Assembly: GCA_000091205.1 (NCBI GenBank)
Contig: AP006497.2
Source of the DNA: Cyanidioschyzon merolae
Lineage: Eukaryota
Direction: 5' to 3' (one strand)
DNA length: 64,000 nucleotides
The position numbers were made by a program, and so were the translations under genes. The notes beneath the pieces were generated by a model. The model had not been told where the DNA came from. It was given only the letters and a program-made list of their open reading frames with translations, and made no database searches. Shown in pieces: positions 4,307 to 55,043 of this stretch (the stretch's first letter is position 1; every line of letters begins with the position of its first letter).

Positions 4307-4789
4307 GTCGCTACCCGCCCGGATCCGGTACCGATGCGGTGCGATGCGTTGCCGCGCGCGCGCGGGCGCTGCGGCGCGCCATCCGTTTGCGCTTACGATT
4401 ATAGAGTTTCACCTGAACTGTGTTCCACGTTCAGATCCGTGTCAACGAATGCCTGTTCGCGGTTTATTGCAGGTGCTTTCTACGTGCGTTGATTTTCAAA
4501 AATGCAATATTCAAAGGAAAAGTATGGACATGCAAGTCGGGATCATGGAGGTGAGATGTTGCCTGATTCGACAAAAAGAAACACGATAAGATTCCTCTTA
4601 TTGCCGAGTATCGGACGAAGAAACGCGAGTGACGAAGGCGAAGTGGAAGAAGCGTGTTGATAGGCGAGGAGAGCTGTTTGCCCGACGAGGCTGTGACGTG
4701 ACCTTGGTGGCACAGAGGGCACGAGTCCTTATGCACCCTTGCGTTGATGACTTGTACCAGAGACAATACACGCTGGGAGTTCATGAATC

Positions 4790-4930
4790 GAGACTTCAAC
4801 GCTGCGCCATTAAAAACAGACGATGTGCGGTGCTGAAGAGGCGACCCGCGTACCCGACGCGAGCCAACTTTGTGGGCCAGCCTCTCACACTCGATGTGTG
4901 CAACGATAAACTGAACTCACTAGTCCTGAA
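4790..4930 (+). mobile_element. Short, degraded relic of the TnpB/Fanzor-like element (copy C), covering the region just after RuvC-III.
   Basis: ORF 4629..5051 reads ...QRCAIKNRRCAVLKRRPAYPTRANFVGQPLTLDV.... This matches NAAVNVRRCAVLEKRPPEWTRENFVGQSLKVEL of copy A and KETRPPKLTRPHFLGQPLQVE of copy B. Confidence 0.3.
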
Positions 4931-5591
4931 GCTTTACGTATATCGGCGTTATACAGCAGTTCGCTACATGTCGGAAGCGTCGGATGCCACGTGGTTCCTA
5001 AATTCGCATGAAAGTTCACTACAGCAACGCCGTACCACACACCATGAGTGATGCTCGTCGTCTTTGCAAAGACGCTTCCGTGCATTGTCGCTGGTATAGG
5101 GGCAGTCAGCTTGTCAAATAGCGTCGTGCGGGTACCCTGAATCAACTGGAAACCAAGCATCCAATCGATTCAAGGTGTTTCTCAGTCACAGTTGGGCGTC
5201 AAGTTGTCCTGATCATGCAGCGACAGAGGCGGCAGCCGCTCAGCACCCCCTGAGTCGGAGTTCCACGTCTGCAATCCGCCATTGTGCTCGGCTGAAGAAG
5301 CGTATCGACAAACGTGCAACAGGCATGAGCCACAGATCGGCCGCTGAGCTACATGTATCCGGACGCTCGTTTCCGCCTGCAGAGCCATCACGTATGCGCA
5401 TGAGAAAGTTCGCACCCGATGCATACATCTCGAAGCAAACCGCATGCTGCCGGCTGTGGATAAAGTGCTCTATTCAACGGACAAGTCGAACGCGAACGCC
5501 CTCCAAGTGGCGGCACCACTGAATCGGACAATGTTTACAACCTGCCATGCCTTGCGGTATGCTGCTAACGCTCATTCCAGGCGCTCGAGGT

Positions 5592-6668
5592 CTAGTTCAA
5601 GGGTTTCGTCGCAAGCCACACCCGATGCCGCGGCGTATTGTTTTCGGTCTGCACGTCAGTGAATCCACTGATTGTCAGTAAACTGACCATATCGACGCGT
5701 TCATACTCAGAAAAATACGGTTCAGTGCTGCGGAATATGGCTGCTCCGACCGGGGGTATCGAACGGAACGCTTCGCTGTGCGGATCAGAATCCATCATCG
5801 CCAACATGCCTCCGGGGCGAAGCACTCGATACGCCTCTACCACGAGACGCTCGGTCGCTGCCATGGGCAGCTCATGTGTCACCAGGGAACATAACACGAG
5901 GTCCACCGAATCCGCTTTCTGAGGGAGGTTCTCGACCGCGGCGTGCTTAAAACGCACCTGAATCGATGACGGGTAGCTGCGCTCCTCTGCACGTAACTCG
6001 GCAACCGCAAGCATGAACGTCGATAAATCGATTCCTGTTATGTCGAGCGGGCGTTCCGGATACCGTGCTAGCCATGCATCGATGAAGCGCATCGTGCTGA
6101 GTCCAGTCGACGCACCCAGGTCGAGTGCTACCAGTGGACGTCCCATGGGCACGAGCAGCTGTTCCAGACGAGGCCAGACTCGGTCCAGGAAGGTGTCGCG
6201 TAGCAGGCGGTCACCTTGCGTGGGCGGTGCTTCCGGGAAAAGGCGTGCATGGACCGCCAGAGCCGACGACTCGACTTCCATGGCAGGAATCCAGCCAAGG
6301 TTCCCTTCCGGATACGTATGGAACGGTGCACGTACGTAGTAGTCTGGATATACGAGGTCGCGTTCGACAAGTCGCGCTCGTTTCTGTTCGAGGGTGTCCC
6401 ACTTGAGCCGCAGCTCACGAACGTTCTCTCGCCAGGGCACGCCGATCTCCTCCGCTCTCTTGACGACACCTGCACGGCCAATTCGCTTCAGTAACCAAGC
6501 AGTGGGCGGGAAAGCTAAAATCCCTTGTACTATCAGAGCCGGCAGTTTGCCCTCGGGGTTTCGCGTCACTGGAGTCGTCGCCGAAGCGTGAATCCATCGA
6601 CAAGCTCGGTATCGAGTGCACTTCTGAGACGGCAGTCTCACGCATGGAACAAAGTTTAACTGCGTCAT
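5592..6668 (-). CDS. Class I SAM-dependent methyltransferase (Methyltransf_11-like). The 5' end is uncertain.
   Basis: Methyltransferase motifs are present: motif I VALDLGASTG, post-I ITGIDLS, motif II ADSVDLVLCS, motif III LRPGGMLAMMD. An upstream conserved block DLVYPDYYVRAPFHTYPEGNLGW is also present. The first plausible in-frame ATG is MTQLNF at about 6668. The 637 aa ORF continues upstream through a transposon relic. Confidence 0.6.
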   Translation of the reverse strand: MTQLNFVPCVRLPSQKCTRYRACRWIHASATTPVTRNPEGKLPALIVQGILAFPPTAWLLKRIGRAGVVKRAEEIGVPWRENVRELRLKWDTLEQKRARLVERDLVYPDYYVRAPFHTYPEGNLGWIPAMEVESSALAVHARLFPEAPPTQGDRLLRDTFLDRVWPRLEQLLVPMGRPLVALDLGASTGLSTMRFIDAWLARYPERPLDITGIDLSTFMLAVAELRAEERSYPSSIQVRFKHAAVENLPQKADSVDLVLCSLVTHELPMAATERLVVEAYRVLRPGGMLAMMDSDPHSEAFRSIPPVGAAIFRSTEPYFSEYERVDMVSLLTISGFTDVQTENNTPRHRVWLATKPLN

Positions 6669-9945: not shown

Positions 9946-11106
9946 CTACATGGAACTTTTCTCTGGGTTGCTGCTGGCGTTCGTCTCGATTTTCTGAACG
10001 CGATCGCGGGCGTATTCGAGCATTCTGCGAGTGTACCTGGAAGCAAACACCTCAAAGTAATAGTTACTTCCGTTCCACACGACGATGAGACCGACAAATG
10101 CCAACACGATTTCGTGCATCCATTTGTAACGCCAGAACAGCGCCGTAGGCAAACAAGTCACCCCAGTGAAAATCAGCTGCCAAAAAGCGAGTGCCAAATT
10201 CTGGTATCGCTCGCCGAAGATATTCAGCATCCGGGAGACTGCCGAGCCCGAGTGACGTGTGAGCCATCGCAGGCTTGTGATCAATTCAGGGTTTCGATCG
10301 AGCTTTCGACGAGAGATAACCAGAATCTTTGCAAGATACAAGGTTTGCCAGATTAGAAAGATCACCAGCGGCACTGCCACCGTAAACGCGCGACGTCCTA
10401 ACGCGATACAGTCTGCTTCGTGGCTGCAGATACCGATCCGTCGCGAGATGATCAAGTCTGAATGCCAACGAGCATTGTACGTCACTAGTGGGGGAAATAT
10501 ATGGATAAATACGGACGTCATCTTATCGAGCGAATGAAAAACCAGCGCATTGCGCCACGCCACCATCGCCCAGAGCACCGGTCCGTTCGCCGAGGCAAAC
10601 AGGGCCACGAACATGACCTGTCGCCAGGCTTGCGTCCGCGGCCAGCCAAAATAGAAAGCTACCAGTAGTGCTTGCACAAAGTAACAATAGTCGTACATGA
10701 AATAATGCTGAGCAGACTTGCGGTATGAATAATAGCGGAGAATAAGCAGAGGCGTCAGCTGGTACAGATACCACTGCCATAGACGCGCCGGCTGGCGTAG
10801 AATAACGTATTCCGTGAAGAGCACGTTGAGCAGACCCAAGACAAACGAAAGTTTGTCTCGCAAACGAATGACCTCTGGAGTGCGAACGCGCCTTTCGATG
10901 GCTCGCCGCCGCTCCACGAGCCGATGTTTGGTGTTACGGATCTTGTCATCTAGATTAGCAAGGCTACCAAGTGTAAAAATATCGGACAAAGAAAGGCTGA
11001 GCAGGTCAGGCTCGTAGTACGCTTCCGAGTCGGGAAAAGCGGAGGAGTCCGTCTCGTCGAAGTGGTCAACGCTCGCACTGCCCAACGCACGCCCACCGTC
11101 GTCCAT
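9946..11106 (-). CDS. Polytopic membrane protein with about 8 TM helices. It is possibly DUF2838/GPC1-like, i.e. a glycerophosphocholine acyltransferase.
   Basis: Eight hydrophobic helices are visible. My recollection of a conserved block YF.YDYCYF.. and ..FHSLDK.TSVFIHIFPPLV.. is from memory, not a run search. The ORF begins with an ATG at 11106. Confidence 0.4.
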   Translation of the reverse strand: MDDGGRALGSASVDHFDETDSSAFPDSEAYYEPDLLSLSLSDIFTLGSLANLDDKIRNTKHRLVERRRAIERRVRTPEVIRLRDKLSFVLGLLNVLFTEYVILRQPARLWQWYLYQLTPLLILRYYSYRKSAQHYFMYDYCYFVQALLVAFYFGWPRTQAWRQVMFVALFASANGPVLWAMVAWRNALVFHSLDKMTSVFIHIFPPLVTYNARWHSDLIISRRIGICSHEADCIALGRRAFTVAVPLVIFLIWQTLYLAKILVISRRKLDRNPELITSLRWLTRHSGSAVSRMLNIFGERYQNLALAFWQLIFTGVTCLPTALFWRYKWMHEIVLAFVGLIVVWNGSNYYFEVFASRYTRRMLEYARDRVQKIETNASSNPEKSSM

Positions 11107-11454: not shown

Positions 11455-12150
11455 AAAGTTTAGCTTCTAGGCGGAAGGTCCCGCGATCTGGACAAGTCTG
11501 TTAGGCTGATGCTTCATGCGCTCCCGCAATAGCTGTTGCTCTAGCGAGACCTGAGCAACTCGTCCGCAAACGCAGTTCATTCTGGGACTCAGAGCGGATA
11601 CACTGCGTTTCGATGTCGTCACGGTCGCAGTGGACTTCTTGTATATTGCTTCGCGCTGCAGCAGGCAATAGGTCCGTCTGCGCGATTGGCTCGTTCCCGG
11701 AATGCTCATGAATCCTGATTCCGTAGCAGGTGAATGTAGGCAAAAGGTCCGTCTGCGCGATTGGCTCGTTCCCGGAATGCTCATGAATCCTGATTCCGTA
11801 GCAAGTGAATGCAGGCAAAAGGTCCGTCTGCGCGATTGGCTCGTTCCCGGAATGCTCATGAATCCTGATTCCGTAGCAGGTGAACCACGCCTCGGGCCGG
11901 CACCCTTTGCAGTATGGCAAAAACGTCCTACCTCCGCGATGTATCGTCATCAGCGGTATGAGCGATAAAGCGGACGCTCACGACAGGTACTCGGCGCACG
12001 ATAGAACATACGAAACGACCAGCATATCCGTGAGGAAATATGGGTAAAGGAACTTGGAGCTAGGGTGCAGCACCATGACCAACGCTCTTCTGATTACCAT
12101 TATCCATCCGGCAACCTGTCATCCATGCTCCATGTCCACCGGTTTGTCAT
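11455..12150. repeat. Dispersed repeat, copy A (about 550 bp core), carrying an internal tandem expansion.
   Basis: It begins aggcggaaggtcccgcga... and is alignable along most of its length with 25975-26510. Antisense and sense ORFs in the two copies translate to similar peptides (MLMNPDSVAGE..PAPFAVWQKRPTSAMYRHQRY versus MLVNSDSVSGG..PAPFVVWQKRPVSVMHRHQRL). Confidence 0.6.
11671..11895. repeat. Tandem repeat of 75 bp x 3, nearly identical units, inside dispersed-repeat copy A.
   Basis: Units start at 11671, 11746 and 11821 with the sequence ggtccgtctgcgcgattggctcgttcccggaatgctcatgaatcctgattccgtagcaggtgaatgtaggcaaaa. Copy B (25975-26510) carries a single unit. Confidence 0.85.
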
Positions 12151-12409
12151 CGAGAGAGACGGAGAGAGACCGGATAGCGCCATCGATGCGCTATCGTCGA
12201 TCGCCGCCGCTGCCATCATCTGTTGAGGGTGCCTCCAGCCGCCAGCGCGCGCCCGGATCGCGGCGACCGCTCTGCGCATCCGTCGTCCAGAGGCACGGAG
12301 TTGTGAACCTGCCCCCAGACACGTACGCTGCACCGTGTACTGCCTTTGCAGGAGAGGCGCTCTCAAGTCTCCGCTATTCAGGTTCACTTCTGGCGCATCT
12401 TCTATCGGA

Positions 12410-12916
12410 ATGTTTGTTAGCGGAGCTTTTCAGGTTCCTCGGGAGAGACGCTGGGGTGCGGCTCGGGTTGCACGTCCTAGGCGTGCGCTCCGGCTACGGG
12501 ACGCGCAACGTCGTCACAGTGGCGTCTCGATTCTGGAGGCCAACGGCGAGAGCAAGGATGGCAAAGCAGGAGGCAAAGGTGGCGGCCTATTTGGAGGCCT
12601 TGGTAACCTCATGGATGCAATGAAAAAAGCACAAGAGTTCTCCAAATCGGCACAGGCGCTACAGGAAGAGCTGAAGAACACGGAAGTTGAAGCAACCTCG
12701 AGCGACGGTCGGGTTCGTGCAGTCGTTTCCGGACAGCAGGTGCCAATCCGAGTTGAGGTTTCTGATGAGCTCATCGCCGAGGGGAACCCAGCGGTCAGTG
12801 ACGCTGTCACGGAGGCAGTGCGCAACGCTCATGTGAAAAGCGCGGAGCTGATGCGACAACAGCTCGCGGACCTAACCCAGTCCTACGGGCTGCCGCAACC
12901 ACCGAAACAACCCTAG
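12410..12916 (+). CDS. YbaB/EbfC-family nucleoid-associated protein (DUF149), probably organelle-targeted.
   Basis: The core GGLFGGLGNLMDAMKKAQEFSKSAQALQEELKNTEVEATSSDGRVRAVVSGQQVPIRVEVSDELIAEGNPAVSDAVTEAVRNAHVKSAELMRQQLADLTQSYGLP is a good match to bacterial YbaB (GNLMKQAQQMQEKMQK.QEE...). It is preceded by an Arg-rich presequence. The ORF-track start at 12335 is GTG. The first ATG is at 12410, and an upstream exon is possible. Confidence 0.7.
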   Translation: MFVSGAFQVPRERRWGAARVARPRRALRLRDAQRRHSGVSILEANGESKDGKAGGKGGGLFGGLGNLMDAMKKAQEFSKSAQALQEELKNTEVEATSSDGRVRAVVSGQQVPIRVEVSDELIAEGNPAVSDAVTEAVRNAHVKSAELMRQQLADLTQSYGLPQPPKQP

Positions 12917-12968: not shown

Positions 12969-14495
12969 TCAGATTTTCAGAAGGAGTCTGCGCCATGTAA
13001 TAAGGAACTGTGCATAGCTATGAAGGCCATTCGAGGCCGGCTGCTGTTGCTGCTGCTTCTGGGTGCTGTGACGCAGGCGATACCAGAGGCGCAAGGGCGC
13101 AAAGGCCCAGTGTGCAGCACCATGCGACGCAGTGTCCCCATAACTCGACACGAGATAGCCGTCCACGAGGAGCGTGCCTTCAAAAGTGAGCGGCGCGTAC
13201 GCGTTGGTGTCCACGTGCTCGGTAACTCGTACAATGGTGTCGGTGGATCCATCTTCATGGAGCAAGGCCATACCCGGAAACAGGTTGCGGGCTCGCGTGA
13301 ATCGTGGGCGTTCGTGCGCATCTCCCGGTTGGACGTACACTAAATGATCGGGTGTCATGTGCAAAACGCCACCGCTGCTGGTGTGCAGCGCGATATACTG
13401 GAACGGGCCTGCCGCAGTTTGTTTGTCCGCAAACGCGTACGCGGTCGTGAAGCGCTTCGTCCAGCCACCGCGATTGTTCGGGACTAATGTGGCAATACGC
13501 GTCCCGGGTTCGAGTGCGGATAGCGGCACCAGCGTGCCGTCTGCGCGCTCTACGGTGCTCTCAGCCGGAAAGCAGCCGATGAAGCTCTGCCCACCAGCCA
13601 AGGTCGAGGGACAACCAGAGAAGGACTCTAGTGCGACAAACTTTGCGCTTTCGTTGTATATCGGGGGTCCGAGCGTGATGGTGCTCCCCTGCTGCGGCCA
13701 GAAATCAAACGTCGCAGACGTCTCCACAGGTTCATACATGGGAATATTGGTTTCCATCGGGTTTGCCGGGCAATAAAAAGGTGCACTCATCCCCGTCTCT
13801 CGATAAAAATCCAAACACTCCTCACACACAGAATAGCTGAGCTCCATACCAACATTTTCAACGAAACGAACGTCAACGACAGACGCGCACGTTGGCTCCA
13901 TCCCGTTCACGAACCCGCCTTCGGGAACGATTACGACGCTTCCGGAGGGAACGACAAACACATACGCCACCCCGGCTTGCTGGCCCTTGATAAGCCCCAG
14001 CGGTATCGTGAGCGAGTCGGTCAGTGGCGGGTATGGTCCGCCACTGATGGAAGCGAGCTGCGTGCCATCCGTTTCACCAGTCAAGTATGCGGGGAAGAAG
14101 GCACCACCAAACGGATACGCAGCGACATCGGTTGCTCCTCGGTTTAGAACCACAGCCAGGCTCTCATTTTTCGGGTTCAGAAACTGCCAGTATACGATGC
14201 CCTCAGAACGCGAAATCCACGACCAACTCACCTCAACGCCCAGCGGGCTCGAGCAACTCTGTTGACTACGGACTCGCTCCAAGATACGTCCAACGGTTAG
14301 GGTACCCGCCGGTTTGGTACCTTTTGGGTAGTACAAGTGCCGCAACCTCGCCTGTTTCGAACGAGATATGTCGCTGAGCCCTAGCGTTTTCACAGGCAAA
14401 GCGTACGCCACGTAGCAGCATAATCCCACACTGCAAAAGAGCGCTAGCAACAAAATCCAGGAAAAGAGCACGCGACATCGTAGACTGTGGCCCAT
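12969..14495 (-). CDS. Secreted Hedgehog-type Hint-domain (Hog) protein, paralogue A.
   Basis: It has an N-terminal signal peptide (ATG at 14495) and an N-terminal domain of about 270 aa with NxS/T sites. The autoprocessing junction GCFPAESTV is present. The Hint core reads ...ALHTSSGG.LHMTPDHLVYV...YAPLTFEGTLLVDGYLVSSYG......AHWAFAPLRLWY and is closely similar to the Hedgehog C-terminal autoprocessing domain. Confidence 0.8.
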   Translation of the reverse strand: MGHSLRCRVLFSWILLLALFCSVGLCCYVAYALPVKTLGLSDISRSKQARLRHLYYPKGTKPAGTLTVGRILERVRSQQSCSSPLGVEVSWSWISRSEGIVYWQFLNPKNESLAVVLNRGATDVAAYPFGGAFFPAYLTGETDGTQLASISGGPYPPLTDSLTIPLGLIKGQQAGVAYVFVVPSGSVVIVPEGGFVNGMEPTCASVVDVRFVENVGMELSYSVCEECLDFYRETGMSAPFYCPANPMETNIPMYEPVETSATFDFWPQQGSTITLGPPIYNESAKFVALESFSGCPSTLAGGQSFIGCFPAESTVERADGTLVPLSALEPGTRIATLVPNNRGGWTKRFTTAYAFADKQTAAGPFQYIALHTSSGGVLHMTPDHLVYVQPGDAHERPRFTRARNLFPGMALLHEDGSTDTIVRVTEHVDTNAYAPLTFEGTLLVDGYLVSSYGDTASHGAAHWAFAPLRLWYRLRHSTQKQQQQQPASNGLHSYAQFLITWRRLLLKI

Positions 14496-14834
14496 GGCGG
14501 GCCACTGCTGCTCCCCGAGTGTGCAGGTCTAGCTCAAACCTCGCCACCTAGAACGTCGGGCATGAATACCCGCAACGGATGCGGCCATGTGCACTCAAGC
14601 ATCGATGCGATGCACCACGTGGCGATGTCCAAGTTCTGGAGTTCCCTGCAAGCGGCCACTCAACGGCCGCATCGCCGGTGCGTCGGAACTCGCAGCGCGT
14701 TCGATGCTTGCACGGCCAGCACCGTGGAGATTAAAATTCGTGGTACCTGCGAGTGCTGCCAGCACGTGGCATCTGGAGGTTCCCTGGTGTGACGTGCAGA
14801 TACAACATTCTCGGAATTGTTCCTGTAGGAAATC

Positions 14835-14968
14835 ATGCGACTCGCCATGAAATCCCTTACGACGCTGGTATTCGTCGTAGAGATCGTTGTTTGCCTCAGT
14901 GTATGGTCTGGGTTAGCCCTTCCGGTTTATCGTAGTGACCGCCCCCAGCTGGTGTTCGCAAAGCCGCC

Positions 14969-15000
<32 letters not shown>

Positions 15001-16427
15001 TCGCCGCCGGGGTGCGTCTCGAACGGGCACCGCTGCACCCTCTCGACCAGAGGGTTGTTCAAGAGGTTTCCGGTGCGCCGCTGGGACAGCCTTCACTGCG
15101 TACAAGCGGCACGAGTTGTACGAGCGGTGCAGGTGTGGAGGTTTCCTGGACATGGTTCAACCAGACCAGCGGTATCGTTGTATGGCAGTTCTACAATCCG
15201 ACTTCGAGTGAACGGGCAGTTGTTCTGAACCGCGGGGCGAAAGGCAACAATAGTATCATTGAATCGTACACCTTCGGCGGCGCCTATACATTCGCGTACC
15301 TCGGGAACGGGCTCGCCACGCTGGCCCCGGGGCCGTATCCGACGCTGGAAGCATCACCGAGCGTGTTGCCGGTCGCCATTATAGATAAGAGCGATCCGGA
15401 TATTGGCTTTCTCTTCACTATTCGTGCGGGTGGCACGGTAAGCGTCGAAGAGGGTGGCTTCGTGAACTTGGAACCGTTCTGTGACAGTGTACCTGACGTC
15501 TCGTTCGCGGAGAACGCCGACGTCAACATCACTTATGCAAAGAGTGTTATGTGTGAAGAATACTATTTTCAGGAAGGTAGTTCGAATGTTACGTGTTCTT
15601 CGAATCCTTTGGTGACGACTTGGCCTATTTATCAAGTGGCAAACGGTTCCGTGACGGGACAGAATTACATTATCATGGACTCTAATACACAGATCGAGTT
15701 TTTGAACGTATCAAACTCACAGGGTGGTTCATCGTCGGGATTCTCCTGCTTCCCGGGCGATGCAACCGTCACACTGTCCGATGGACAAGTCAAGCCCATT
15801 CACCAACTCAAGAAAGGCGATTGGATCTATACGCTTTCGTACGACGCCAAGGATCGCAAGTGGTCCCGTGTTTCGACGAGATTTCTCGGATTCCTCGATC
15901 ACAAACCTGCAGAGCGGACTGAATTCCTTCGGATTACGCTGCACGGGACGGATAGCGTTCTAGAGATTACACCGGATCACTTGTTGCCGGTAGTCGCAGC
16001 CGGTCCGTCCCCTGGTGAGCAACGTGAGCGCTATATGCCCGCTCGGCTGGTTGTGCCTGGCGCATTCCTCTTTCTGGAGACCGGTGAGCTTGCCCACGTA
16101 CGCAGCATGACATGGGTGCAACGGACGGGTGCCTTTGGACCGCTCACCGAGGCGGGAACCCTCCTAGTCGACGGGGTCCTCGTCTCGTGCTATGCGCACA
16201 CAGGGAGTCATGAAGCTGCGCATATGAGTATGTGGCCGTTGCGCGTTGGATCCCGTCTATCTCGCTGGCTGAACCCGGTGCATGCCCGTGTCCCAGGGAG
16301 CGCTTGCGCAAGTACTGGTATGCATCCGTATGCGCGTGTGCTGCTCGCTCTTCAGTACATGCTACGCATGTTCGAGCATCCGAGAAGCAAACAATACCTC
16401 CATAAGCATCAGCATATTTGGCTGTGA
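14835..16427 (+). CDS. Secreted Hedgehog-type Hint-domain (Hog) protein, paralogue B, with a polyQ tract.
   Basis: An ATG at 14835 is followed by a signal peptide and Q11. The N-terminal domain (GVEVSWTWFNQTSGIVVWQF.NP...AVVLNRGA...FGGA) is homologous to paralogue A. The junction FSCFPGDATV and the Hint core ...TEFLRITLHGT.SVLEITPDHLLPV...FGPLTEAGTLLVDGVLVSCYAHTGSHEAAHMSMWPLR are present. Confidence 0.8.
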
Positions 16428-19400
16428 AATTCTGCGCATAAGCGCTGCGGCGGGTCTGTGAATTCCGATACGAACAACCCCCTATACCTGTGTCAGCTTA
16501 AGAATGAACCATTGGAATGCTCGCCCTGTTCCTAGCGTGCGAATTTCTCCCGACCTTGTTTGTAGATGTACAGCCTCGCCGTTCGAAATGCGACAATGAG
16601 CGATGACGGATTCAAACGTAGTTGTAGGGTTCTCGATCGTCTTGTCAGTGTGGCTCGTTTCTCGCTTTGCCGCTAGAATTCGGTACGTTACCGGAATCTA
16701 GGTGATTCGCGATGCCATGGAACCAGGGCTCGTAAAATAATCGATATCGTTACGAAGTGCATATGTAGAATTTTTCACGCGTCCCTTTTCGGTACCTGCT
16801 ACATGTTAAAATCGCAAATTCTTCAAGTCCTCCATGTTTCTGTTTCGTGGCAATTCGTAGACGCAGCCATTCGCGTCGCTGGATCGAGGAAAAAAAACTG
16901 GACGCCGTCCACTGACGAATTCATCACAGGTTCATGGCTGGCGTTTACTGACTTTGTCACGTGAAAAATTCAAAGCAGCTCGAAGGACAACACTCTTGCT
17001 TGATTGTGGCTATCGAGAAAACGACATTCGACAGCAGCATGATACGTCAGCCAGGACACGCTTCTACTAGAGGCTCCCGTCTATTCTGTTACCACGGAAA
17101 AGGATTGTGGACTCGGGCTTGAGCCAGCGCAGTGATCGCTTCTAGGGAAGCGCCCGTCACCGCCTGGTCCGAACTGAGCATAGACGGATCGAAATTTCTC
17201 GACTTGATCTTGAGGATCGATTTTTTTCTGGGATTCGCTTCATCATGGACAAGTTCGCAGTGCACAAATCCTCTATCGAATGGGACGGCGTACGCTTGGA
17301 CATGCATCGGGCAGTGTACTCGCTGTGCGTATCGGCCAGAAGAAGGCCGGAATTATAGGGTACGGTCTCGGGCATGGAAACGAGCCACGGAAACGACGGG
17401 TGCGCTCTCTGAACCTGTAAAGGGTATGAAGTGAACGCTGAATGAGGCGTTCATGGTCAACAGGACAGCTCTCGGAGGATACGGTACCGTAGACATATGG
17501 GAATACCCGACCGCAGTGAGGTCGCACCGGTGCAAAGCGCACATCGCGACTGTATGCGAAGAAAATGCGACCGGCAAGCGAAGCATATGAACTGCATCTA
17601 CCGCCTATGCACGAAATGCGTCGCTAGCAGCCCGGAGCAGCAATATCGGCATTTGACTGCAGCAATCGACATGCTTCGACTGCTGAAAATGGAACTGGAG
17701 GGAAACGGGAGCAATGCATTCTTGAATCCGGAGATGCTTGTAAGGCAAAAGAAGCAACCACAGAAAAATCCGCAAAATCCAGTTTTCATGACAATCAGAT
17801 GTAATCCGAACGTCCTTATGTACGCCAGAGTTTGGTACTTGGTTCCTGTCCATCTCAGCCTGACATGAACGCCCATAAAGCATCCATAGAGTCGACATGA
17901 GCCAGGAAAAGAGCACATAGCGCGAACGCGCTGGCCTCGGGATGCGTCCGCCCAGGAGACTGCACGCGCTGTGTGGGCGGCCCCAGTTCGAACGCTTTGG
18001 TTCCCGGCTTGAAGCAGGTCGTGCATACGAGTTGCTCCATCTTTGAGGATACCATTCAAGTCACCCGCGGCTGTGATTCTTTATGATACCGTGGATCGCG
18101 TCTTCGGAATACCAGACAGGTTGCGCTGGTCCCATGTCCACAGGAAATATGGCTAGCTGTAGCATCCCTAGCGGGACGGCCGCCAGCATTGGAGCTGCAC
18201 CCAACAAATAGATGTACACGACGTGCATTTAGCTCCTAGTGCCAGGCACGTGAACGCATCCGCCAAGTATTCGCTCAAGGTGCCTTGCAGGTGCACGCGA
18301 TTACGGTGGAAAATCCGCGTACCTAAAAGCAAGCAAATGCCCCCAGAATGCAGCGTCTCTCGGAGCGTCTCTCTGCCGTTCAGGGATGTACCGGTACGCT
18401 GTCGCTCATTTCCTTGAATTTGACGATTCCGATATCGAGGAGAGCGCTCCTGTATTAGACGCTCGCAGCCCTATCCGATTTCGGAGCGAAACGGAACAGG
18501 AAAAGTCGAAGTTCCATCGGTAGGCAGCCACTCATCAAGATCATCCAATTACCCGTGAACGTCGACCTGGTCTCTGCACCAAGCGTACCCATGGTATTGC
18601 ACGACGTGACGAGCCTTGCGATCTATGCGTCCAGGTGGGCGACTCCGGGAACCCGGAACCAGCGTCCTGCGAACACTTCGTAGACGCGACGCCTCGACGG
18701 TGCCCAGTACTGGCGCGTTTTCGGAGGTGCGCAACTGCACAGTTGCATTGCACTGACTCTGGCTTCGCGTCGCATACGCGTTGTACGATTACTGAGCAGC
18801 GACACTCTCTATGCACGCGCTGGTGTTGCTCCCGATGTACGCACAACGTCCAACTTGGAACGGAACCGTCGCCGCAACACACGCCTAGATCCTGGTTCAG
18901 GAGGAGTAACCAATGGTGCTGCTTCGAGTTTTAGGACGGCATGAAAGAGAGCTCCGGCGTATCTTGAATTCAAGATTATCGCCAAGATCAGATTGCCGAG
19001 TTGTACGCCATTGCCCCGAGCCCTGTTTGGGTCTCGCTCACAACGGCCAGCATGTGCGCAAATAGAGTTGTTGCGTTCCCGATATTCGCTTCCGATAAGC
19101 TACGCACGATCTGTTGTTTCACGTCGAGCGTGGGCTGCAAGCACTTGAGCCAATCCCCTGCATGTATTTCGCTTGCCAGCGGCTGCAGGTTGTACGCTGC
19201 TCCGCACTGAGCGGTCGCAGCCTGCACTTGAGCCAATCTCCTGACACCATTCGAGGGAAGCAGCCGCAGCCGCAGCCGCAGCCACAGGCTCTTTGCGTGC
19301 TCGCTCTCCATTGCATTTTCGTACGTACGCTAGACAGACACAGACTCGATCATTGCGGGAAATGGATTTCCGCATGCACTCTGAAGCGCCATAGGCATCA

Positions 19401-20174
19401 AAAACATGTTCGACAAAAGCGACGTACGACTGAGAACCTTGTACATGTTCGCTTTCGTGCGACGAGCGTGCACAACACCTCGAGTCGGCGAGCGTCACGA
19501 CGACAGAGACCAGTCGGCAGCGGGTCAGTTGGCGTCAGACACTGCACGTTTGGACGCGTTTCCGAGGAGTTCAATTCTCGATCGAAACTGACTCTGGTAG
19601 GTGCTTTCGAGTTGCCGGCAAATTCACCGCTTCCGGGTAGAGTAAAGCTCGAGAACGCCTTCAGCGCAGTGCCAGTTCTGCCACACGCCACCTTCCCGGC
19701 TCCAGTGAGGTCTAGTTACAAACCGACGCTCCCCGATGCTCGACAGTAGTCTTCGACTCGACCAAGAGGAAACACGGAGAGGCGTCTACGTCACGGGAAT
19801 CAAGCGGCGATCCGGGAAAATGCAGCTCGTCAGGGGCTTTGCCACGCCCTCATCGCGCGAAAACGTCGTATGCTCCAGACGCAAGCGTTGTAACCGCGAG
19901 TGCATGCTGTCTTCGGAAGCGCCGATTGCTCTCCGAACCAAAACACCATCATGAGCAAGGATTCGAGCCCTCGCACCGGTCTCACGATCGCACGCGCTCG
20001 AGTCGAAGCATCGCTCGCCGTCATCGATACAGTTTCTCAAGCCGCAGCCGACAAAACTTCCTGTCCATCACCCGCATGATCCGGCTGCATGCTCGTCACA
20101 GGTTCATTGTCTACTCGTGGAAGAGCGCGCCCCCCGATACAACCGGTACGCGAATGGACAATGCTTCAGAGAGC

Positions 20175-20310
20175 GCATCCCTCATGACCGTCACACTCGG
20201 GCAGGTACCAAGAAGTGCTGCAGCGTAGAGCTGCTTAGCAACGCATCCCTCATGACCATCACACTCGGAAAGGTACCGAGAAGTGCTGCAACGTCGAGCT
20301 GCTTAGCAAC
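20175..20310. repeat. Tandem duplication of 2 x 68 bp.
   Basis: Unit 1 (from 20175) is gcatccctcatgaccgtcacactcgggcaggtaccaagaagtgctgcagcgtagagctgcttagcaac. Unit 2 (from 20243) is catccctcatgaccatcacactcggaaaggtaccgagaagtgctgcaacgtcgagctgcttagcaacg. Confidence 0.8.
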
Positions 20311-20516
20311 GAGCGCGTCGACCTAGATGCCACCGTGGCACCCCCAGTGCCGTCCAGTCTCCGTTGGCCAAGTGCAACGGCGGATGCGACGTCGCCACGA
20401 GTGCCCACGGCAGACCCGGTTTCCCAGAAGATCGCCCGAAGCTATCGGAGCAACCATGAGCTCCTCAGCGGGAACCCTCTTGCGGCGAGTGTTCCAACGC
20501 GGCCTTCACTGCGATC

Positions 20517-21197
20517 CTATGACTGGTCGTCTTCCGGAAAGTTTGTCTGGAGCGTTCTACCAGATTCAGTCGGTACGCGACGGCGACGTAACATGCCCCG
20601 GATGTTCGCCTCGCCAGTGCCCAAACAAACCGGACACACAAGGTTCCCCTTTCCGTCACACTGAGGACAGACCGTGCCTTTATACTGCGCTCGCTTGTCT
20701 TCAGCGAAGCCACCAGCCCGCCAGAAGCCCGTTCCACCACACATGTCACAGACGACACGCCCCTTGCCGCGACAGTTCGGACACGGACCCGTCGGTGGTG
20801 GCTCACGAGCGCGAGCGTCGGACACAGCCCCCAGCAGCCACTGTGTCATAAAAGCGGCTATGCCCACACCAACTTGTTTAATGAACGTTCGTCTCTTGGG
20901 ATCGTTTGGCTCCAGGGAAGCTCGTACCTCTTCCCGGTGTCGCGAGCGAAACACTGCGTTCACTCTGGGGACACTGCATCGGCACACGGGTCGCCGCTCG
21001 ACCCAGTGCCCGAACCAGCCGTCCGGTGCGAAAGCCAAAGGTTCCATGACCCTGTCGAATCTGCGTTCCTGACGAACGCCAAGCAGTCCAAGAGTGGAAC
21101 GCTCGTTCCAGACTCGGTCTCGAAGGGTCACGGGTATAGCGCGCCAGTCAGCAGTCGTTGGCCTTGCAGCGTTCACCATCATCATCATCATCATCAT
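20517..21197 (-). CDS. DnaJ-like CxxCxGxG zinc-finger protein with a twin-arginine motif, a candidate thylakoid-lumen protein of the PSA2/BSD2/LQY1 type.
   Basis: It has four C-x2-C-x-G-x-G units ([32 protein letters not shown]). Upstream is [16 protein letters not shown], which looks like an RRxFLK Tat motif followed by a hydrophobic segment. The ORF-track start at 21218 is GTG. The first ATG is the first of seven consecutive ATG codons (21197-21177). Confidence 0.5.
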
Positions 21198-21625
21198 GTC
21201 GATGCCGTGAGATGGCACCGGGCGCTGGGCCGCAGCACATGGTGCTACGTTCCTCCAATGTTCTTGGTTGCGTTCCAGCGGGGGCCAGGGTCGGGGTTAT
21301 TGTTCGCTTTCCATGATCACTTGGATGGTTTTCAGAAAACCAAAGCGTTTACTTGGAACACCGTGCGCAGGCGGGAGGCTTTTTACGGGGGCGGTGGTGC
21401 AGGATCCTCTCCATGAGTCGGGGCTCGCCAACTGCGCGATGCTAGGCGCTATCCGGGAGAGCGTGCATCGTTCGCTACGCTCTCGCCATGCTTCCTGATG
21501 CTATCTGCGCGAGTCCTTGCACAAGCTACTCCATCAAGTGCTGTCTTCAGCACCGGCAGTCGCTGTCACGTCGACGGCAATGCGTAGCGCCAGCATAGGG
21601 GAAAAAAGTACGCTCGAGTAGCGCT

Positions 21626-24000: not shown

Positions 24001-24545
24001 CTCATACGCAAGCGATTCATCCGGGGCTTTGTATATTCTTTGCACAGCGCTTCCCAATGAGCAACGCGAACTTTTATGAACTCCCGAATGACCTGAAAGT
24101 CCGCTCCATGGCTCGTCACCTCGCTCATAGCTTCCAGATGCTCGTTCACTCCTTCATTTTACGTCTCAATTTTCTTCCTTGCATTCATTATTCCCGATTC
24201 TCGGTAATATCTAGCTTCTGAGAGCTTCAACAGAGGCATGTTTTCCTGGCGCAAGCCGCCGTCAATACCATCTTCCCCACGCTCGGATACCGCAATAGGT
24301 ATAATATTCATGTTCCCGGGGCCCGCGCCAACGACATAGTCCTTACCCTGCACCGCATGCGTCGCAGGATCCGCCTCCTTTTTTTTCATGCCTCGCCGAC
24401 GGCGAAGCATGAAGATGCAATGGGACGATCCACTTTCAAGCGCCGATCGTGTACACACACGGCTGCTCCATCGGCTTCGATCATCTCAGTAAATAACTTT
24501 TGTTTGCTCGTTTTCAGACGTTTGAAATCGAACATATTCACCCAA

Positions 24546-25358
24546 TTACGTCTCCCGGTTTTCGCCCGTAAACTCCTTGCTGCTTAGATCGAACTCCGGA
24601 TAGATCTCCTTCATTTTGCTGTAAAGTACGTAGGGGCCAACTGTCACAAAATGTGACTTGATGTTGCATAGCGGAACGACATTGAAGCGCTTACCCATTC
24701 GGGCAGCGTTCCGTTTCTCTGACTCTTCATTTTTCCCCTCACACGCTGCTCCATCTCCGCCTTGCGTTCGAGTTCTCGATTCAGGAATACGAAATAGTGC
24801 AGGATGAGCGGATAAAAACTTTTTTTCATCTCTGATACCTTTTCTGCTGGATTTGACAAGCCCCAAGACTACACAGTGCTCGTGAACAGCCATACGAATG
24901 ACAGAAGCTTCATTCTTGCCCCTGCGTGATGCCTTCTTGTCGACGAATTCGATCCCCTGTCCATTCTGGCGATCGTTCGTGATGCCACTGATGATGGCCC
25001 GTATCCCCTGGCGGGAGAGGCCCGGGCACAGTGTAAAAATAGCCCGTATGATGAAACGTTCGAGGTTCACGATCATATGGTTCTTCCGGTGCTTGAGGAA
25101 CTTGATTGCCCCGTAGGTGTAAATATCACCATCATCCCTGCATCGAGTACCGTCGAAGCGGAATTCGGCGTAATTCTCGTGGAGGGCGTGCACTCGCTCA
25201 TTTTTCGTCGACGTTTCCCCTGTGCCAACCATCAGGTGGCGAATAAACGTCTTGCTGAAAAATCCCCCCGGGACCTCGACCATTTTGATGCCCATCACGT
25301 CCCGAAACATCTTCTTCATCAAATACATAAGCCCTGACGGAGCCTTCATAATACTCAT
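24546..25358 (-). other. Unassigned 270 aa ORF inside an AT-rich island (about 24000-25800). It lies upstream of, and in the same orientation as, Fanzor-like copy B, and may be the N-terminal or other coding part of the same element.
   Basis: Its base composition differs sharply from the flanking DNA. It is a long ORF co-oriented with copy B. I recognise no motif with confidence. Confidence 0.25.
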
Positions 25359-25974
25359 GGAGTACGACTCGACACGGTTTCTGAGTGCATCTCACAACTT
25401 TCCCTTTTAGGGATCCTTGATATGCCGAAGAAGACGGGCTTTCACAACCATCTCGTCATAGTGCCGTCTCTCTTGCAGCCTCTGACGTCGGACTTCCCCC
25501 TTTTTGCTTTTCGTCCTCTCCTGTTCTTCTGTACTTGACACTGTTTCTTCTTGCAGCCGGCGACATGATGCCTCCATAATCCTCCATTTCCATTTCCATG
25601 ACTTGCACTTTTCATTTTTTTCAAAAAGAACACGCTTTGAAAGCCTCTGCTATAACTCACGAAAAATCACTGGAATACACTTACTTGAGGGTTGGAACAC
25701 AGTTGAGTTCAAAAACTCGACGTTGCTATGACTTCAACGTAAATCCATCCGGTAAGTTAGAGCAACACGCTGATGATCAGGATCGTGTTCCCCTTGAACG
25801 GCGGCGTACGCATGGTGTATCATACCTTCCAGATTTAGAGATGCGCCTATCGACAGCACTATGCGGAGCAAAGAACAAAGACTTACCACTAAATGGCGAC
25901 GATACATCGATGTCTTTCGCTCTCTACGATAAACGTGAAAAGGGGAAAATGTTTCTGACCTGTCGAAAGCGTAC

Positions 25975-26510
25975 CTTAAAGGCGGAAGGTCCCGCGAACC
26001 GCACGAATCTCCCAGGCTTGCGCCTCATGCGCCTCCCAGTGGCGGGTGCTAGAGTGAGATCAAAGCAAATCGTACGAAACGCAGTTTATTCTGGGACCAG
26101 GGGCGGGCGGCTTGCTTCTGGGCGTCGCCCTTGTCGTGGAGGACTCCCCGGAAATCGCTTCTCGTTGCCGCTGATAGGATGTCCGTCTGCGCAGTTTGCT
26201 AGTTCCCGACATGCTAGTGAATTCCGACTCCGTATCAGGTGGAGCATTCCTCGAGCCGGCACCTTTCGTAGTATGGCAAAAACGTCCTGTCTCCGTGATG
26301 CATCGGCATCAGCGGTTGAGGCGCTGTTGCGGATGCAGTAATGCAGGTAATCGGCACACGATAGAACGTACAAACCGACCAGCGTATCCGAAAGGAAGTA
26401 TAGGTCAAGGAACTTGAGGGTGAGGTGCAGCAGCATGATGGACGCTTTTCCAATTACCATTACCCATCGCGCAATAAGGGATCCATGGTCAATGCCAACG
26501 TTTTGTCATC
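25975..26510. repeat. Dispersed repeat, copy B, homologous to 11455-12150 but with a single 75 bp unit.
   Basis: It begins aggcggaaggtcccgcga.... Similarity to copy A continues through ...ggcaaaaacgtcct..tccg.gatg.atcg.catcagcgg... and ...ggaacttg.g...ggtgcagcagcatga...attaccatta.ccatc.... Confidence 0.6.
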
Positions 26511-37876: not shown

Positions 37877-38576
37877 CGTGATAAGAGGAAGGAGGTTACT
37901 TTCCCGACGGGGTATCCAAGTGAGGCCTGTTTGGGTACTGTGCCGGTTCATTGGACTCGATCAAGCATCGTGATAAGAGGAAGGAGGTTACTTTCCCGAC
38001 GGGGTATCCAAGTGAGGCTTGTTTGGGTACTGTACGTGTTCATTGGACTCGATCAAGCATCGTGATACGAGTGAGGAGGTTACTTTCCCGACGGGGTATC
38101 CAAGTGAGGCTTGTTTGGGTACTGTGCCGGTTCATTGGACTCGATCAAGCATCGTGATACGAGTGAGGAGGTTACTTTCCCGACGGGGTATCCAAGTGAG
38201 GCTTGTTTGGGTACTGTACGTGTTCATTGGACTCGATCAAGCATCGTGATAAGAGGAAGGAGGTTACTTTCCCGACGGGGTATCCAAGTGAGGCTTGTTT
38301 GGGTACTGTGCCGGTTCATTGGACTCGATCAAGCATCGTGATACGAGTGAGGAGGTTACTTTCCCGGCGGGGTATCCAAGTGAGGCTTGTTTGGGTACTG
38401 TACGTGTTCATTGGACTCGATCAAGCATCGTGATACGAGTGAGGAGGTTACTTTCCCGACGGGGTATCCAAGTGAGGCTTGTTTGGGTACTGTGCCGGTT
38501 CATTGGACTCGATCAAGCATCGTGATACGAGTGAGGAGGTTACTTTCCCGACGGGGTATCCAAGTGAGGCTTGTTC
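37877..38576. repeat. Minisatellite of 92 bp units x about 7.6, in two alternating unit variants, between tRNase Z and UTP10.
   Basis: Unit starts are at 37877, 37969, 38061, 38153, 38245, 38337, 38429 and 38521 (the last partial). The unit is cgtgata(a/c)gag(g/t)(a/g)aggaggttactttcccgacggggtatccaagtgaggcttgtttgggtactgt(gccg/acgt)gttcattggactcgatcaagcat. Confidence 0.9.
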
Positions 38577-38631
38577 AGGTGCCCTATCGATTATATCGTA
38601 TTCATCACGAATCTCTGCGGTCACTTGGAAC

Positions 38632-53330: not shown

Positions 53331-55043
53331 GACGACGAGACCCAGCTGCAGCAACAGCAGTAACTACAAAAGCTTGACGGCAGCGTTGCGCTTCGCGTGA
53401 TCAGCAACGAAGTCGCCACGGCAGAAAAATTCAAAATGGCGAGCGGGCTTTGGGCCGCCCTTTCATGAAGGCGCGCAGTGGCAGCAGCGAGGATGGCCCG
53501 CTGATGCTGTGGTCATATATGGATATAATGTACTAATTAGTACAGACTGCATCGGGTATCCCTAGACCCCCTGCTACGCAATCACGCAAATGCTTTGATC
53601 GCTTCGCAGTCCGGAAAAGTCAGGGCGCCACGTATACATCCATGTCTCGCGAATGATGCTCCTGGACAATTGATGAACGATAATGGTGTTTCAGCATTCG
53701 ATTCTACCGAATTTATGATCCAGATACGTTGATTCCATACGAGGGAAAAGCTGCTATCATGACTAAGCGCTGAGAGCTACGAGCGCGCTTTCTTGCCAAA
53801 AAGTTCCGTTTCATGTTCAGGCTGCATTCTTCAGCTCGGATTCCTGATGACGCAGGTATCCGTTCGATGGTAATGCCGTATGGTATCCCGTAAATGGCCT
53901 TTCTGGTCTGGGCCTCATGCGCAGGGCTCGGTACCCACCGATGATCGAGTCGCAGGTCACCCGATCCATTTTCTCGATAGCGGAAGGAGGAAGTGTTCGC
54001 GGCCTATATGCACGTACATCGACAGCGATGCCGCTGCTTCTTGAGCAGTTTCCTCTTGTATGGAGCATTTTAGCGCTTGTGTGTATGGACCGGAGCTCTC
54101 GAAAGTACGGAAATACTTCCCGAAAATTTGCGGCTTGTGGAACACATCCGGCTCGTGCACCATCGTTGACGTGCCCTGGTGCCGTAAGCGAGGCTTTAGT
54201 GCCGGTCCGGTGCGTTTCCGGGACCCTCCACGACAACGGAACTGTTCCCGTATATGTCCGTAAAACGCCATAGCCGTGAATGGAAGTGCTGTCTCTGACG
54301 TCTTTTATCTAGGTCTGCGGCGTACCGATGACGATCTTGACAGAATCCACAGGGATGAACGGTGCATCGTCGACACGGATTCTAGTTTGGTGCACGTGCA
54401 TGAGCAGGAACTAGGGATCGATGCACCGCATGATGCTCCAATTGGAAATGTTGTGTCCGACACTCCCTATGCATGCGTTTGAATGTGTCCAAATTCTAGA
54501 CGCTTATTGTCGATGACGATCACGTATCCATGGAAACCCGCCTAGATGCGCCTACCTTGCAGCATGAAATGCCCCGGCAACATTTTGCCTCGGTGCAATC
54601 CTAAAACCCATGCAGTTTTTTGGTCCTGACCCTGAAGCAAAGAACCTGCTCGGTAACGCTCCTGCAATAGACACATCTGACACGTTCCTCGCGTTTGCGC
54701 CATACGGAAATCCATCGATGCCAACTGAGACGCGATCCCCAGCTTCATCTATATCCATCCTTGGCAAAGTGCTGATCGGCTCCATAAATACTCGCACCGC
54801 GTCGAAAACTGCACCTGCCTGCTTAACGTCTCTATTTGTGGTCAGCTACTGTCATCCGTCTGCAGGAGCTTGCAGCGATGAACCGCACGGAAACGCAGCA
54901 GAGGCCGGTACGACCCGCCGCACGCGTCCAGGACGAACTGCACCAGCCGCATCGCGCGCTACGCGCCGTCGGTCTGCTGAAACTGCTCGTGCCGTGCAGC
55001 TTCTACACAGTCACGGGTTTGGTGTGCACTACGGCCTCCAGGT

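Follow-up and report, generated by a model that had tools for sequence, protein, structure and literature searches.

Hog proteins, which carry a Hedgehog-type autoprocessing module behind an N-terminal cargo, have been described in red algae and many protists (Burglin, 2008, PMC2362128) and as the nematode warthog, groundhog and quahog proteins. Their architecture is a signal peptide, a lineage-specific cargo, a (Gly/Ser)-Cys-Phe junction, and a Hint domain followed by a sterol/adduct-recognition region (SRR/ARR). The upstream regions of the Porphyra Hog proteins were found to have no relatives, and Cyanidioschyzon lay outside that survey (Burglin, 2008, PMC2362128). Here we analysed a stretch of 64,000 nucleotides (hereafter the window; contig AP006497.2, assembly GCA_000091205.1) from the 902,900-bp chromosome of the red alga Cyanidioschyzon merolae 10D that carries a divergent pair of Hog genes, A and B. 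The pair has the architecture of the protist and nematode proteins, with a probable signal peptide, all Hint catalytic residues conserved and the Hedge (HhN) domain absent, whereas its cargo has relatives in archaeal viruses, archaea and bacteria. The two genes are:

12969..14495, minus strand: gene A, product BAM81541.1 / XP_005537577.1 ('similar to hedgehog protein', sequence identical), probably CMO184C
14835..16427, plus strand: gene B, product BAM81542.1 / XP_005537578.1 ('similar to hedgehog protein', sequence identical), probably CMO185C

Both open reading frames (ORFs) are intact (508 aa in A, 530 aa in B) and diverge from a 339-bp spacer (14496-14834); the coordinates, head-to-head strands and spacer length given in an earlier note on this DNA were all exact on re-check. 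In Cyanidiococcus, the published gene order is CMO181C-like, CMO183C-like, a CMO184C-like Hog gene, a CMO185C-like Hog gene, CMO186C-like and HSF (CMO187C-like) (PMC13353863). The order in the window matches that of Cc. yangmingshanensis g1316-g1321 (PMC13353863), and we therefore infer through synteny that A is CMO184C and B is CMO185C. The two proteins are 36% identical over 443 aa in BLASTP, including the N-terminal part (E 6e-73), and their N-domains are 41% identical, in line with the earlier description of paralogues with mutually homologous cargo. There is no third copy of this type within the window.

The Hog pair itself is already known and annotated (PMC1955436, PMC9812998, PMC13353863). 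'Hedgehog protein' genes were mapped by Nozaki (2007), Hog-domain genes are among the H3K27me3 targets of C. merolae (Mikulski, 2017, PMC5405695), and the genes have been reclassified as non-Hedgehog (non-Hh) Hog genes with mostly haploid-biased expression and proteome support (PMC13353863). Thus the proposal that Hog proteins occur here outside animals holds on the Pfam match described below, while its novelty does not, such proteins having been known since 2008 (Burglin, 2008, PMC2362128). Subtelomeric kelch/trefoil/hint genes have been described by Cho (2023). Within the same organism, the nearest comparison is with the Hog genes and kelch+Hog ('K+H') genes of Cyanidiales that lie in subtelomeric regions (Nozaki, 2007, Cho, 2023; orthogroup OG0000014, PMC13353863), which share annotation, Hog type and a mostly haploid-biased expression with our pair. 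In contrast to these, A and B fall in a separate orthogroup, OG0000012 (PMC13353863), have no kelch match in Pfam and no Thr/Pro/Ala-rich linker, and lie in a conserved syntenic block of housekeeping genes rather than in a subtelomeric duplication. The C. merolae members of OG0000012 are CMN299C, CMN300C, CMO184C and CMO185C, with two adjacent pairs each in Cyanidium and Cyanidiococcus and two genes in Galdieria partita (PMC13353863). What appears to be new is the assignment of the cargo to an archaeal-virus and archaeal family, with a probable horizontal origin and a later fusion to Hog; we found no such assignment of this cargo in the searchable literature.

The cargo domains belong to the phrog_6678 family, and this homology is solid. 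The earlier note could place the cargo in no family and gave it 250-270 aa. The folded domain is instead about 190 aa (residues 90-275 in B), lies between disordered spacers and is conserved far beyond the pair:

13626..14276, minus strand: A cargo domain, aa 74-290, phrog_6678 family (E 1.6e-13)
15096..15704, plus strand: B cargo domain, aa 88-290 (folded core 90-275), phrog_6678 family (E 8.5e-20)

Pfam, NCBIfam and PADLOC hold no model for this domain. A word-indexed search with the 222-aa N-domain gave no match at all, a false negative in that it missed even a 98%-identical protein that was found via the full-length query; empty results from such searches with short domains are not to be relied on, and an exhaustive profile search was used. 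Across 1.84 billion representative proteins, a profile built from the A and B N-domains found 102 proteins at E<=1e-3 (35 at E<=1e-10) and reached archaeal members down to E 1e-22, which answers the question whether the N-terminal domain is conserved outside the pair. The best matches are Cyanidiales proteins of the same N-domain plus Hint build, and the rest are mostly free-standing proteins of 190-280 aa. Among the 23 of the 102 matches whose source was traced are Hint-less, secreted proteins of Galdieria phlegrea, G. sulphuraria and G. partita, as well as members in Cyanidium caldarium, Candidatus Marsarchaeota group 2, Candidatus Parvarchaeum, a metagenome-assembled genome of Thermoplasmataceae and one Paraburkholderia. 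One of the G. partita proteins, g1435 (our P0053), lacks Hint and yet sits inside the published orthogroup OG0000012 (PMC13353863).

The same family is reached from the viral side. The phrog_6678 hidden Markov model (HMM) matches Galdieria (5e-13 and 2e-22), Cyanidium (7e-15) and archaeal members (1e-22 to 1e-30), along with the viral members SIFV0066 (2e-116), Sulfolobales Mexican rudivirus 1 (SMR1) orf32 (5.5e-68) and Sulfolobus filamentous virus 1 (SFV1) gp28 (5e-28). When the B domain was compared with 50,697 virus genomes by tblastn, matches were found only in archaeal filamentous viruses, namely SMR1 orf32 (E 2e-11, 83% coverage), SIFV0066 and five Betalipothrixvirus species; a Marsarchaeota protein used in the same way adds SFV1 gp28, SBFV1, SBFV3, SIRV4-11 and SSRV2. 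These viral homologues, from Rudiviridae and Lipothrixviridae, are all annotated as hypothetical. The structure prediction proposed in the earlier note as a route to a known fold was run and supports the same relationship: given an alignment of 46 sequences, AlphaFold2 (AF2) models the B domain as mostly beta with high confidence (pLDDT 91.6, pTM 0.87), and Foldseek against BFVD retrieves an SFV1 protein (E 5e-12, TM 0.67/0.70) and a Sulfolobales Beppu rod-shaped virus 1 (SBRV1) protein (E 5e-10, TM 0.71/0.69). The matches run end to end over about 200 aligned columns, with predicted structures on both sides, and the PDB gave no match to the whole domain. Together, HMM, tblastn and predicted structure place the cargo with the proteins of the Ligamenvirales (SIFV0066, SMR1 orf32, SFV1 gp28, AFV, SIRV4-11, SBFV, SBRV1 and SSRV2).

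Algal and viral members share an invariant Arg, Tyr, Glu and Gly. In B numbering, Arg133, Tyr155, Glu206 and Gly208 are invariant among 46 diverse sequences, and W117, N121, Y145, F147, G148 and others are at least 90% conserved, which hints at a conserved binding or catalytic site. In other respects the two sides differ. The viral and archaeal proteins are free-standing (about 200-270 aa), mostly lack a signal peptide and often end in a short helical tail with two cysteines, whereas the algal members are probably secretory, carry N-glycosylation sequons and, in Cyanidiales, are fused to Hog. The invariant Arg/Tyr/Glu, together with fusions to repeat or lectin-like regions, suggest with low confidence that the cargo may be a ligand-binding surface module.

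Several further arrangements of the domain were observed. A eukaryote-like protein (P0065) joins it to a Ser/Thr-rich stalk and a single transmembrane helix, Galdieria proteins of 563-641 aa add C-terminal internal repeats, and other fusions are to Trp-rich repeats (P0121), DUF346-like repeats (P0132) or a signal peptide with a Cys-rich N-terminal region (P0069); this variety suggests an extracellular binding role. Metagenomic contigs with prokaryotic members (24-47 kb) are rich in ORFans and carry Hjc, endonuclease VII, DNA methyltransferase, HNH endonuclease, ATPase, helicase and ribbon-helix-helix (RHH) proteins. These contigs resemble viruses or mobile elements, although they yielded no capsid hallmark. 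On two unrelated prokaryotic contigs, the free-standing domain gene overlaps a Holliday-junction-resolving nuclease gene by 4 bp (L005 2012-2335, with Hjc downstream; L006 7351-8004, with endonuclease VII upstream), a possible operon link.

Two roles for the prokaryotic and viral members were considered and set aside. A structural protein of the virion does not fit, given that SFV1 gp28 is absent from the annotated virion proteins VP1-8 and that the contigs lack a capsid hallmark. An anti-defence (Acr-like) role was considered since viral members sit near genome ends; the accessions searched, including SMR1 orf32, SIFV0066 and SFV1 gp28, are absent from the ADG supplement of PMC11065993.

The module behind the cargo is of the Hedgehog type. 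The profile search named as a check in the earlier note returned PF01079 (Hedgehog-type Hint; gathering score 29.7 bits) at E 1.6e-32 and 113.3 bits in A and at E 7.8e-40 and 137.2 bits in B, the sole Pfam match above threshold in either protein, so that a full Hint module is present in both. The match covers profile positions 11-212 of 213 in A and 9-211 of 213 in B and, in reaching position 211-212, takes in the sterol/adduct-recognition region. The Gly/Ser-Cys-Phe-Pro junctions were likewise as described, ...SFIG|CFPAESTV in A and ...SGFS|CFPGDATV in B:

12972..13574, minus strand: A Hog module (Hint and SRR/ARR), aa 308-508, PF01079, with Asp357, Thr381 and His384 kept
13572..13574, minus strand: A catalytic Cys308 of the Gly-Cys-Phe-Pro junction, from alignment with the Drosophila Hedgehog C-terminal part (Hh-C)
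15705..15746, plus strand: end part of the flexible Ser/Gly-rich linker of B, up to the cleavage site (pLDDT < 50 for aa 276-301)
15747..15749, plus strand: B catalytic Cys305 of the Ser-Cys-Phe-Pro junction, from alignment with Drosophila Hh-C
15747..16424, plus strand: B Hog module (Hint aa 305-455; helical SRR/ARR aa 457-529), PF01079, with Asp355, Thr379 and His382

The closest relatives in the PDB by sequence are Drosophila Hedgehog (Hh; E 8e-17) and human Sonic hedgehog (SHH), and the autoprocessing domain is homologous to theirs (PDB 6td6, 7e2i, 1at0). Aligned with Drosophila Hh-C, whose numbering is used here, A, B and both Cyanidiococcus orthologues all keep Cys1, Asp46, Thr69 and His72, and they share with it the SRR tail motifs AH..APLR and G.H.YA..L. 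Unlike animal Hedgehog, A and B have no HhN domain, with no match to PF01085 at E<=1 and no HhN-like structural match to the N-domain model; the cargo fold is unrelated, and a Patched/Smoothened pathway is not implied. Modelled at full length with AF2 from a shallow alignment (mean pLDDT 68), B starts with a helix (2-33) and a disordered stretch (28-89). The cargo (90-275) comes next, then a disordered linker (276-301), a beta-rich Hint domain (305-455; pLDDT 77-95, with one 10-residue block at 64) and an SRR tail that is helical at low confidence (pLDDT 44-63). As far as their sequences tell, A and B are Hog proteins, and neither bona fide Hedgehog proteins nor inteins.

Hydropathy gives each protein a single hydrophobic segment, at the extreme N-terminus (residues ~1-35):

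14397..14495, minus strand: A leader, probable signal peptide or signal anchor, aa 1-33, the sole segment with KD19 > 1.6
14835..14924, plus strand: B predicted signal peptide, aa ~1-30 (hydropathy; helix 2-33 in the model; SignalP6 on the orthologue g1319)
14970..14999, plus strand: B Q10 tract (CAG x10), aa 46-55, in the disordered spacer aa 28-89, Q7/Q10 polymorphic

With an N-terminal hydrophobic leader, a Hedgehog-type Hint domain and SRR, both proteins appear to be of the secreted Hog type, as had been proposed. SignalP6 calls 'SP(Sec/SPI)' for the Cyanidiococcus B orthologue g1319 (PMC13353863); the A leader is probably a signal peptide as well, with less certainty than that of B. The reported N-glycosylation sequons (NxS/T) are present in both proteins, six in B and two in A. 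The polyglutamine tracts are placed differently from the description in the earlier note: the Q11 said to follow directly on the B signal peptide is Q10 and begins about 15 residues past the leader, and the QKQQQQQ said to end A is aa 479-485 in the SRR linker, with 23 further residues that include the conserved G-L-H-x-Y-A. The B tract behaves as a coding microsatellite within the disordered spacer, with Q7 (526 aa) or Q10 (529-530 aa) among environmental Cyanidioschyzon strains (cluster members P0010-P0023) and one extra Pro in the reference strain.

The history of the pair was read from a neighbour-joining (NJ) tree of the cargo domain (71 sequences, 173 columns, 200 bootstraps), which is unrooted and distance-based. 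A-type orthologues group in 200/200 and B-type orthologues in 193/200 replicates, so the A/B duplication is ancient, older than the split of Cyanidioschyzon and Cyanidiococcus. The Hog-linked domains of Cyanidiales are monophyletic in 137/200, and the algal sequences form one cluster amid deeper archaeal and viral branches, save for the interleaved, untraced P0064. A syntenic head-to-head pair is found in a related genome (L001-L003), with the gene order published for Cyanidiococcus, a 340-bp spacer and proteins about 51-55% identical to B. In two other loci, one syntenic with the CMO locus (L011) and one of Cyanidium caldarium and CMN type (L012), the two genes run head to tail on one strand, and the upstream partner encodes the cargo domain alone, without Hint (313 aa, 4603-5544, and 338 aa, 4624-5640, respectively). 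Only Cyanidioschyzon and Cyanidiococcus thus have the divergent Hog+Hog layout, Cyanidium-type loci being tandem, and the head-to-head orientation is a later, lineage-specific state. At the DNA level no inverted duplication is left, with nothing pairing beyond CAG tracts and one 30-nt coding motif; the inverted tandem duplication of the earlier note thus gives way to an ancient duplication. The Hint-less versions in Galdieria and Cyanidium show that Hog is not needed for the cargo domain to work.

Parsimony favours a history in three steps. First, archaea of acidic hot springs or their viruses would have passed the cargo domain to the ancestor of the Cyanidiophyceae; the domain would then have been adapted to the secretory pathway, with a signal peptide, conserved cysteines and N-glycosylation sequons; and in Cyanidiales it would have been joined to the Hog module and the fusion duplicated. 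A direction from archaea or viruses to the alga is probable. Donor pool (extremophilic prokaryotes of acidic hot springs) and recipient lineage are those of the horizontally transferred genes of Cyanidiales (Rossoni, 2019, PMC6629376), in which viruses, Marsarchaeota and hedgehog are not mentioned. In contrast to those metabolic and transport genes, the gain here is of a domain that ended up as cargo of an autoprocessing module specific to eukaryotes.

In the sister genus, the orthologues of A and B are expressed, translated and strongly biased to wall-less haploid cells. The A-type gene g1318 rises from 12-15 transcripts per million (TPM) in diploids to 169-244 in haploids and is 'n only' in the proteome, and the B-type gene g1319 rises from 0.1-0.4 to 383-472 TPM with a proteome signal about 90-fold higher in haploids (PMC13353863). 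Expression of the pair, raised as a question in the earlier note, is thereby seen for the orthologues in both transcripts and proteome, and the common haploid bias fits the co-regulation it proposed to look for (PMC13353863).

Taken as a whole, these data are best explained if A and B are ancient secreted Hog paralogues that acquired a phrog_6678 cargo, which is cleaved, probably lipid-tethered and displayed on haploid cells, an account we consider likely. The leader would take the precursor into the endoplasmic reticulum, as hydropathy and SignalP on the orthologues suggest. The Hint domain would then make an N-to-S acyl shift at Gly307-Cys308 (A) or Ser304-Cys305 (B); the conserved catalytic set Cys1, Asp46, Thr69 and His72 points to such autoprocessing activity by analogy. 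A nucleophile held by the helical SRR/ARR tail, most likely a sterol, would resolve the thioester and free the cargo with a lipid on its new C-terminus, after a flexible linker of about 30 residues, so that lipid transfer and membrane tethering of the cargo probably occur as in Hedgehog. C. merolae has a predicted cycloartenol-type sterol pathway (PMC2817430), and a sterol nucleophile would therefore be available in principle. Finally, the wall-less haploid cell would carry the cargo on the outside of its plasma membrane; the orthologues have a strong haploid bias in RNA and proteome. More tentatively, and here we would put the odds clearly below even, an archaeal or viral phrog_6678 domain was taken up, re-tooled, fused to Hog and lipid-anchored on haploid, gamete-competent cells, where it could serve recognition or adhesion (mating, cell contact) or form a protective coat.

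The interest of the locus lies in the cargo, the Hog part being ordinary and already catalogued. A name and relatives can now be given to the half of this Hog family that had gone unassigned, in a model alga whose wall-less haploid cells express the family highly and specifically. A putative eukaryotic surface protein is linked to a widespread, uncharacterised family of Rudiviridae, Lipothrixviridae and acidophilic archaea, so that work on either would inform the other, and the pair shows cleanly how a domain of probable horizontal origin was combined with a eukaryote-specific module for autoprocessing and lipidation. Comparison with the Hog-less cargo of Galdieria and Cyanidium asks what Hog processing adds and bears on the ancestral, pre-Hedgehog role of Hog. 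If the more tentative reading is true, this would be the first Hog protein with a cargo traceable to the archaeal virosphere, and a tractable non-animal system for the purpose that Hog-mediated lipidation had before Hedgehog signalling; C. merolae has homologous recombination.

A number of observations weigh against this account. For C. merolae, PMC2817430 gives a predicted sterol pathway rather than a sterol profile. In A, the SCYA motif has Ser in place of its internal Cys, and the residue preceding the junction Cys differs across the family (G, S, H, V, T). For the A orthologues, SignalP6 gives no signal peptide in Cyanidiococcus and a signal peptide in Cyanidium (PMC13353863), and the hydrophobic stretch of A is long enough for a signal anchor. 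Strict algal monophyly is recovered in 57/200 replicates of the unrooted, distance-based NJ tree, with P0064 interleaved. With 23 of the 102 sources traced, other eukaryotes may carry the domain (P0065 and P0172 look eukaryote-like). Furthermore, there is no signal peptide in the viral members and SFV1 gp28 is missing from the listed virion proteins, and therefore no function can be transferred from them.

Among the alternatives, the one that fares best concerns the layout, and holds that the head-to-head arrangement is functional in itself, a bidirectional promoter co-regulating A and B as a unit. We regard this as possible, while leaning somewhat against it. The region concerned has two features:

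14496..14834, no strand: shared spacer of the divergent genes, 339 bp (340 bp in Cyanidiococcus)
14616..14645, no strand: conserved non-coding island CACGTGGCGATGTCCAAGTTCTGGAGTTCC, candidate shared cis-regulatory element, 27/31 columns identical to Cyanidiococcus

The near-constant spacer length speaks for such a promoter, as does the 31-nt island, which includes CACGTG and lies at matching positions in the two genera (123 nt from the A ATG in C. merolae, 129 nt in Cyanidiococcus) while the flanking non-coding DNA is unalignable; the control region downstream of B could likewise not be aligned to Cyanidiococcus. Both Cyanidiococcus orthologues, moreover, are haploid-biased. The island thus fits a shared regulatory element, although its significance is modest, its ungapped score being equalled by 1/200 shuffles. 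Against co-regulation as a unit, the homologous pair stands head to tail in Cyanidium-type genomes, the two Cyanidiococcus genes have fold changes that lie orders of magnitude apart, and in Cd. caldarium the Hog gene g377 is haploid-specific (about 100-fold biased) whereas its Hint-less neighbour g378 is mildly diploid-biased (PMC13353863). Of the shared bidirectional promoter proposed in the earlier note, the regulatory element is therefore suggested by the island, while the divergent layout is a lineage-specific state. Scanning the spacer for sigma-70 promoters and terminators gave nothing, but this method does not apply to a eukaryote.

The main rival to the mechanism itself is that Hog only cleaves itself, the thioester being resolved by hydrolysis or another small nucleophile. 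The cargo would then be soluble and secreted without a lipid anchor, and Hog would be a maturation or secretion device rather than a lipidation device. We judge this unlikely, though worth keeping in view. The variable residue before the Cys would suit it, as would the Galdieria and Cyanidium-type loci that make the cargo domain without Hint and the low confidence of the SRR part of the model. It sits poorly, however, with the retention of the SRR/ARR tail, with Hedgehog motifs conserved in four algal proteins, and with a PF01079 match that extends to the end of the profile. In Hedgehog, Asp46 serves sterol transfer, not thioester formation, and this residue is invariant here. Lipid transfer to the cargo is the reading we prefer.

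Concerning the origin of the cargo, the reverse transfer, in which archaeal viruses and archaea of the same springs captured an old cyanidiophycean domain, seems to us improbable. Algae, archaea and viruses share the habitat, the family tree is unrooted, and viruses do capture cellular genes. Nevertheless, the family is far more varied among prokaryotes and viruses, where members from two virus families, no fewer than three archaeal lineages and one bacterium make up several deep branches, whereas the algal sequences are essentially one cluster and the Cyanidiophyceae are the only eukaryotes among the traced matches. Passage from a eukaryote to viruses of Sulfolobales would also require a cross-domain host jump. 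Gain by the alga is retained as the probable direction.

That the genes encode inteins, as the Hint fold common to inteins, the GO term 'intein-mediated protein splicing' on C. merolae Hog genes and the discussion in the H3K27me3 study (PMC5405695; A and B are not among the five Hog-type gene IDs under that term) might suggest, is scarcely credible and is rejected on anatomy, since both ORFs stop at the end of the SRR tail without a C-extein, there is no C-terminal His-Asn plus Cys/Ser/Thr splice junction, no intein Pfam match accompanies PF01079, the closest solved relatives are Hedgehog proteins, and PMC13353863 reclassifies the genes as non-Hh Hog.

The surroundings of the pair in the window are eukaryotic housekeeping genes (eRF1-like, hydrolase, methyltransferase, DUF2838, YbaB, HSF, SDA1, tRNase Z and Noc2), and Rfam and tRNA scans of the window were empty. 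On the A side lies a gene for a YbaB/EbfC-type nucleoid-associated protein (12335-12916, plus strand; PF02575, E 1e-18), with an N-terminal extension of about 95 residues that points to targeting to an organelle. Only 52 bp separate the end of this ORF from the stop codon of gene A, and the two convergent genes therefore have a very short common 3' region. Between the DUF2838 gene (9946-11106) and YbaB, a tandem repeat of a 75-bp unit (11661-11884; 3.0 copies, 96% identity) yields several spurious overlapping ORFs with repeated peptides on both strands. On the B side, about 4 kb (16428-20500) hold no long ORF, which is unusual for a gene-dense genome, no alignment to the corresponding Cyanidiococcus region and no Rfam or tRNA match, with a 68-bp x2 repeat at 20174-20311. 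CMO186C is expected within this interval, or may be the BSD2/DnaJ-zinc-finger-like ORF at 20517-21218 (minus strand). Further along, G+C falls to 0.487 at 24001-26000, against ~0.56 elsewhere, with a strongly negative GC skew (-0.15), in a stretch that overlaps a 270-aa ORF (24546-25358, minus strand). The window also contains two very long ORFs, of 2177 aa at 38479-45012 (plus strand) and 1725 aa at 48177-53354 (minus strand).

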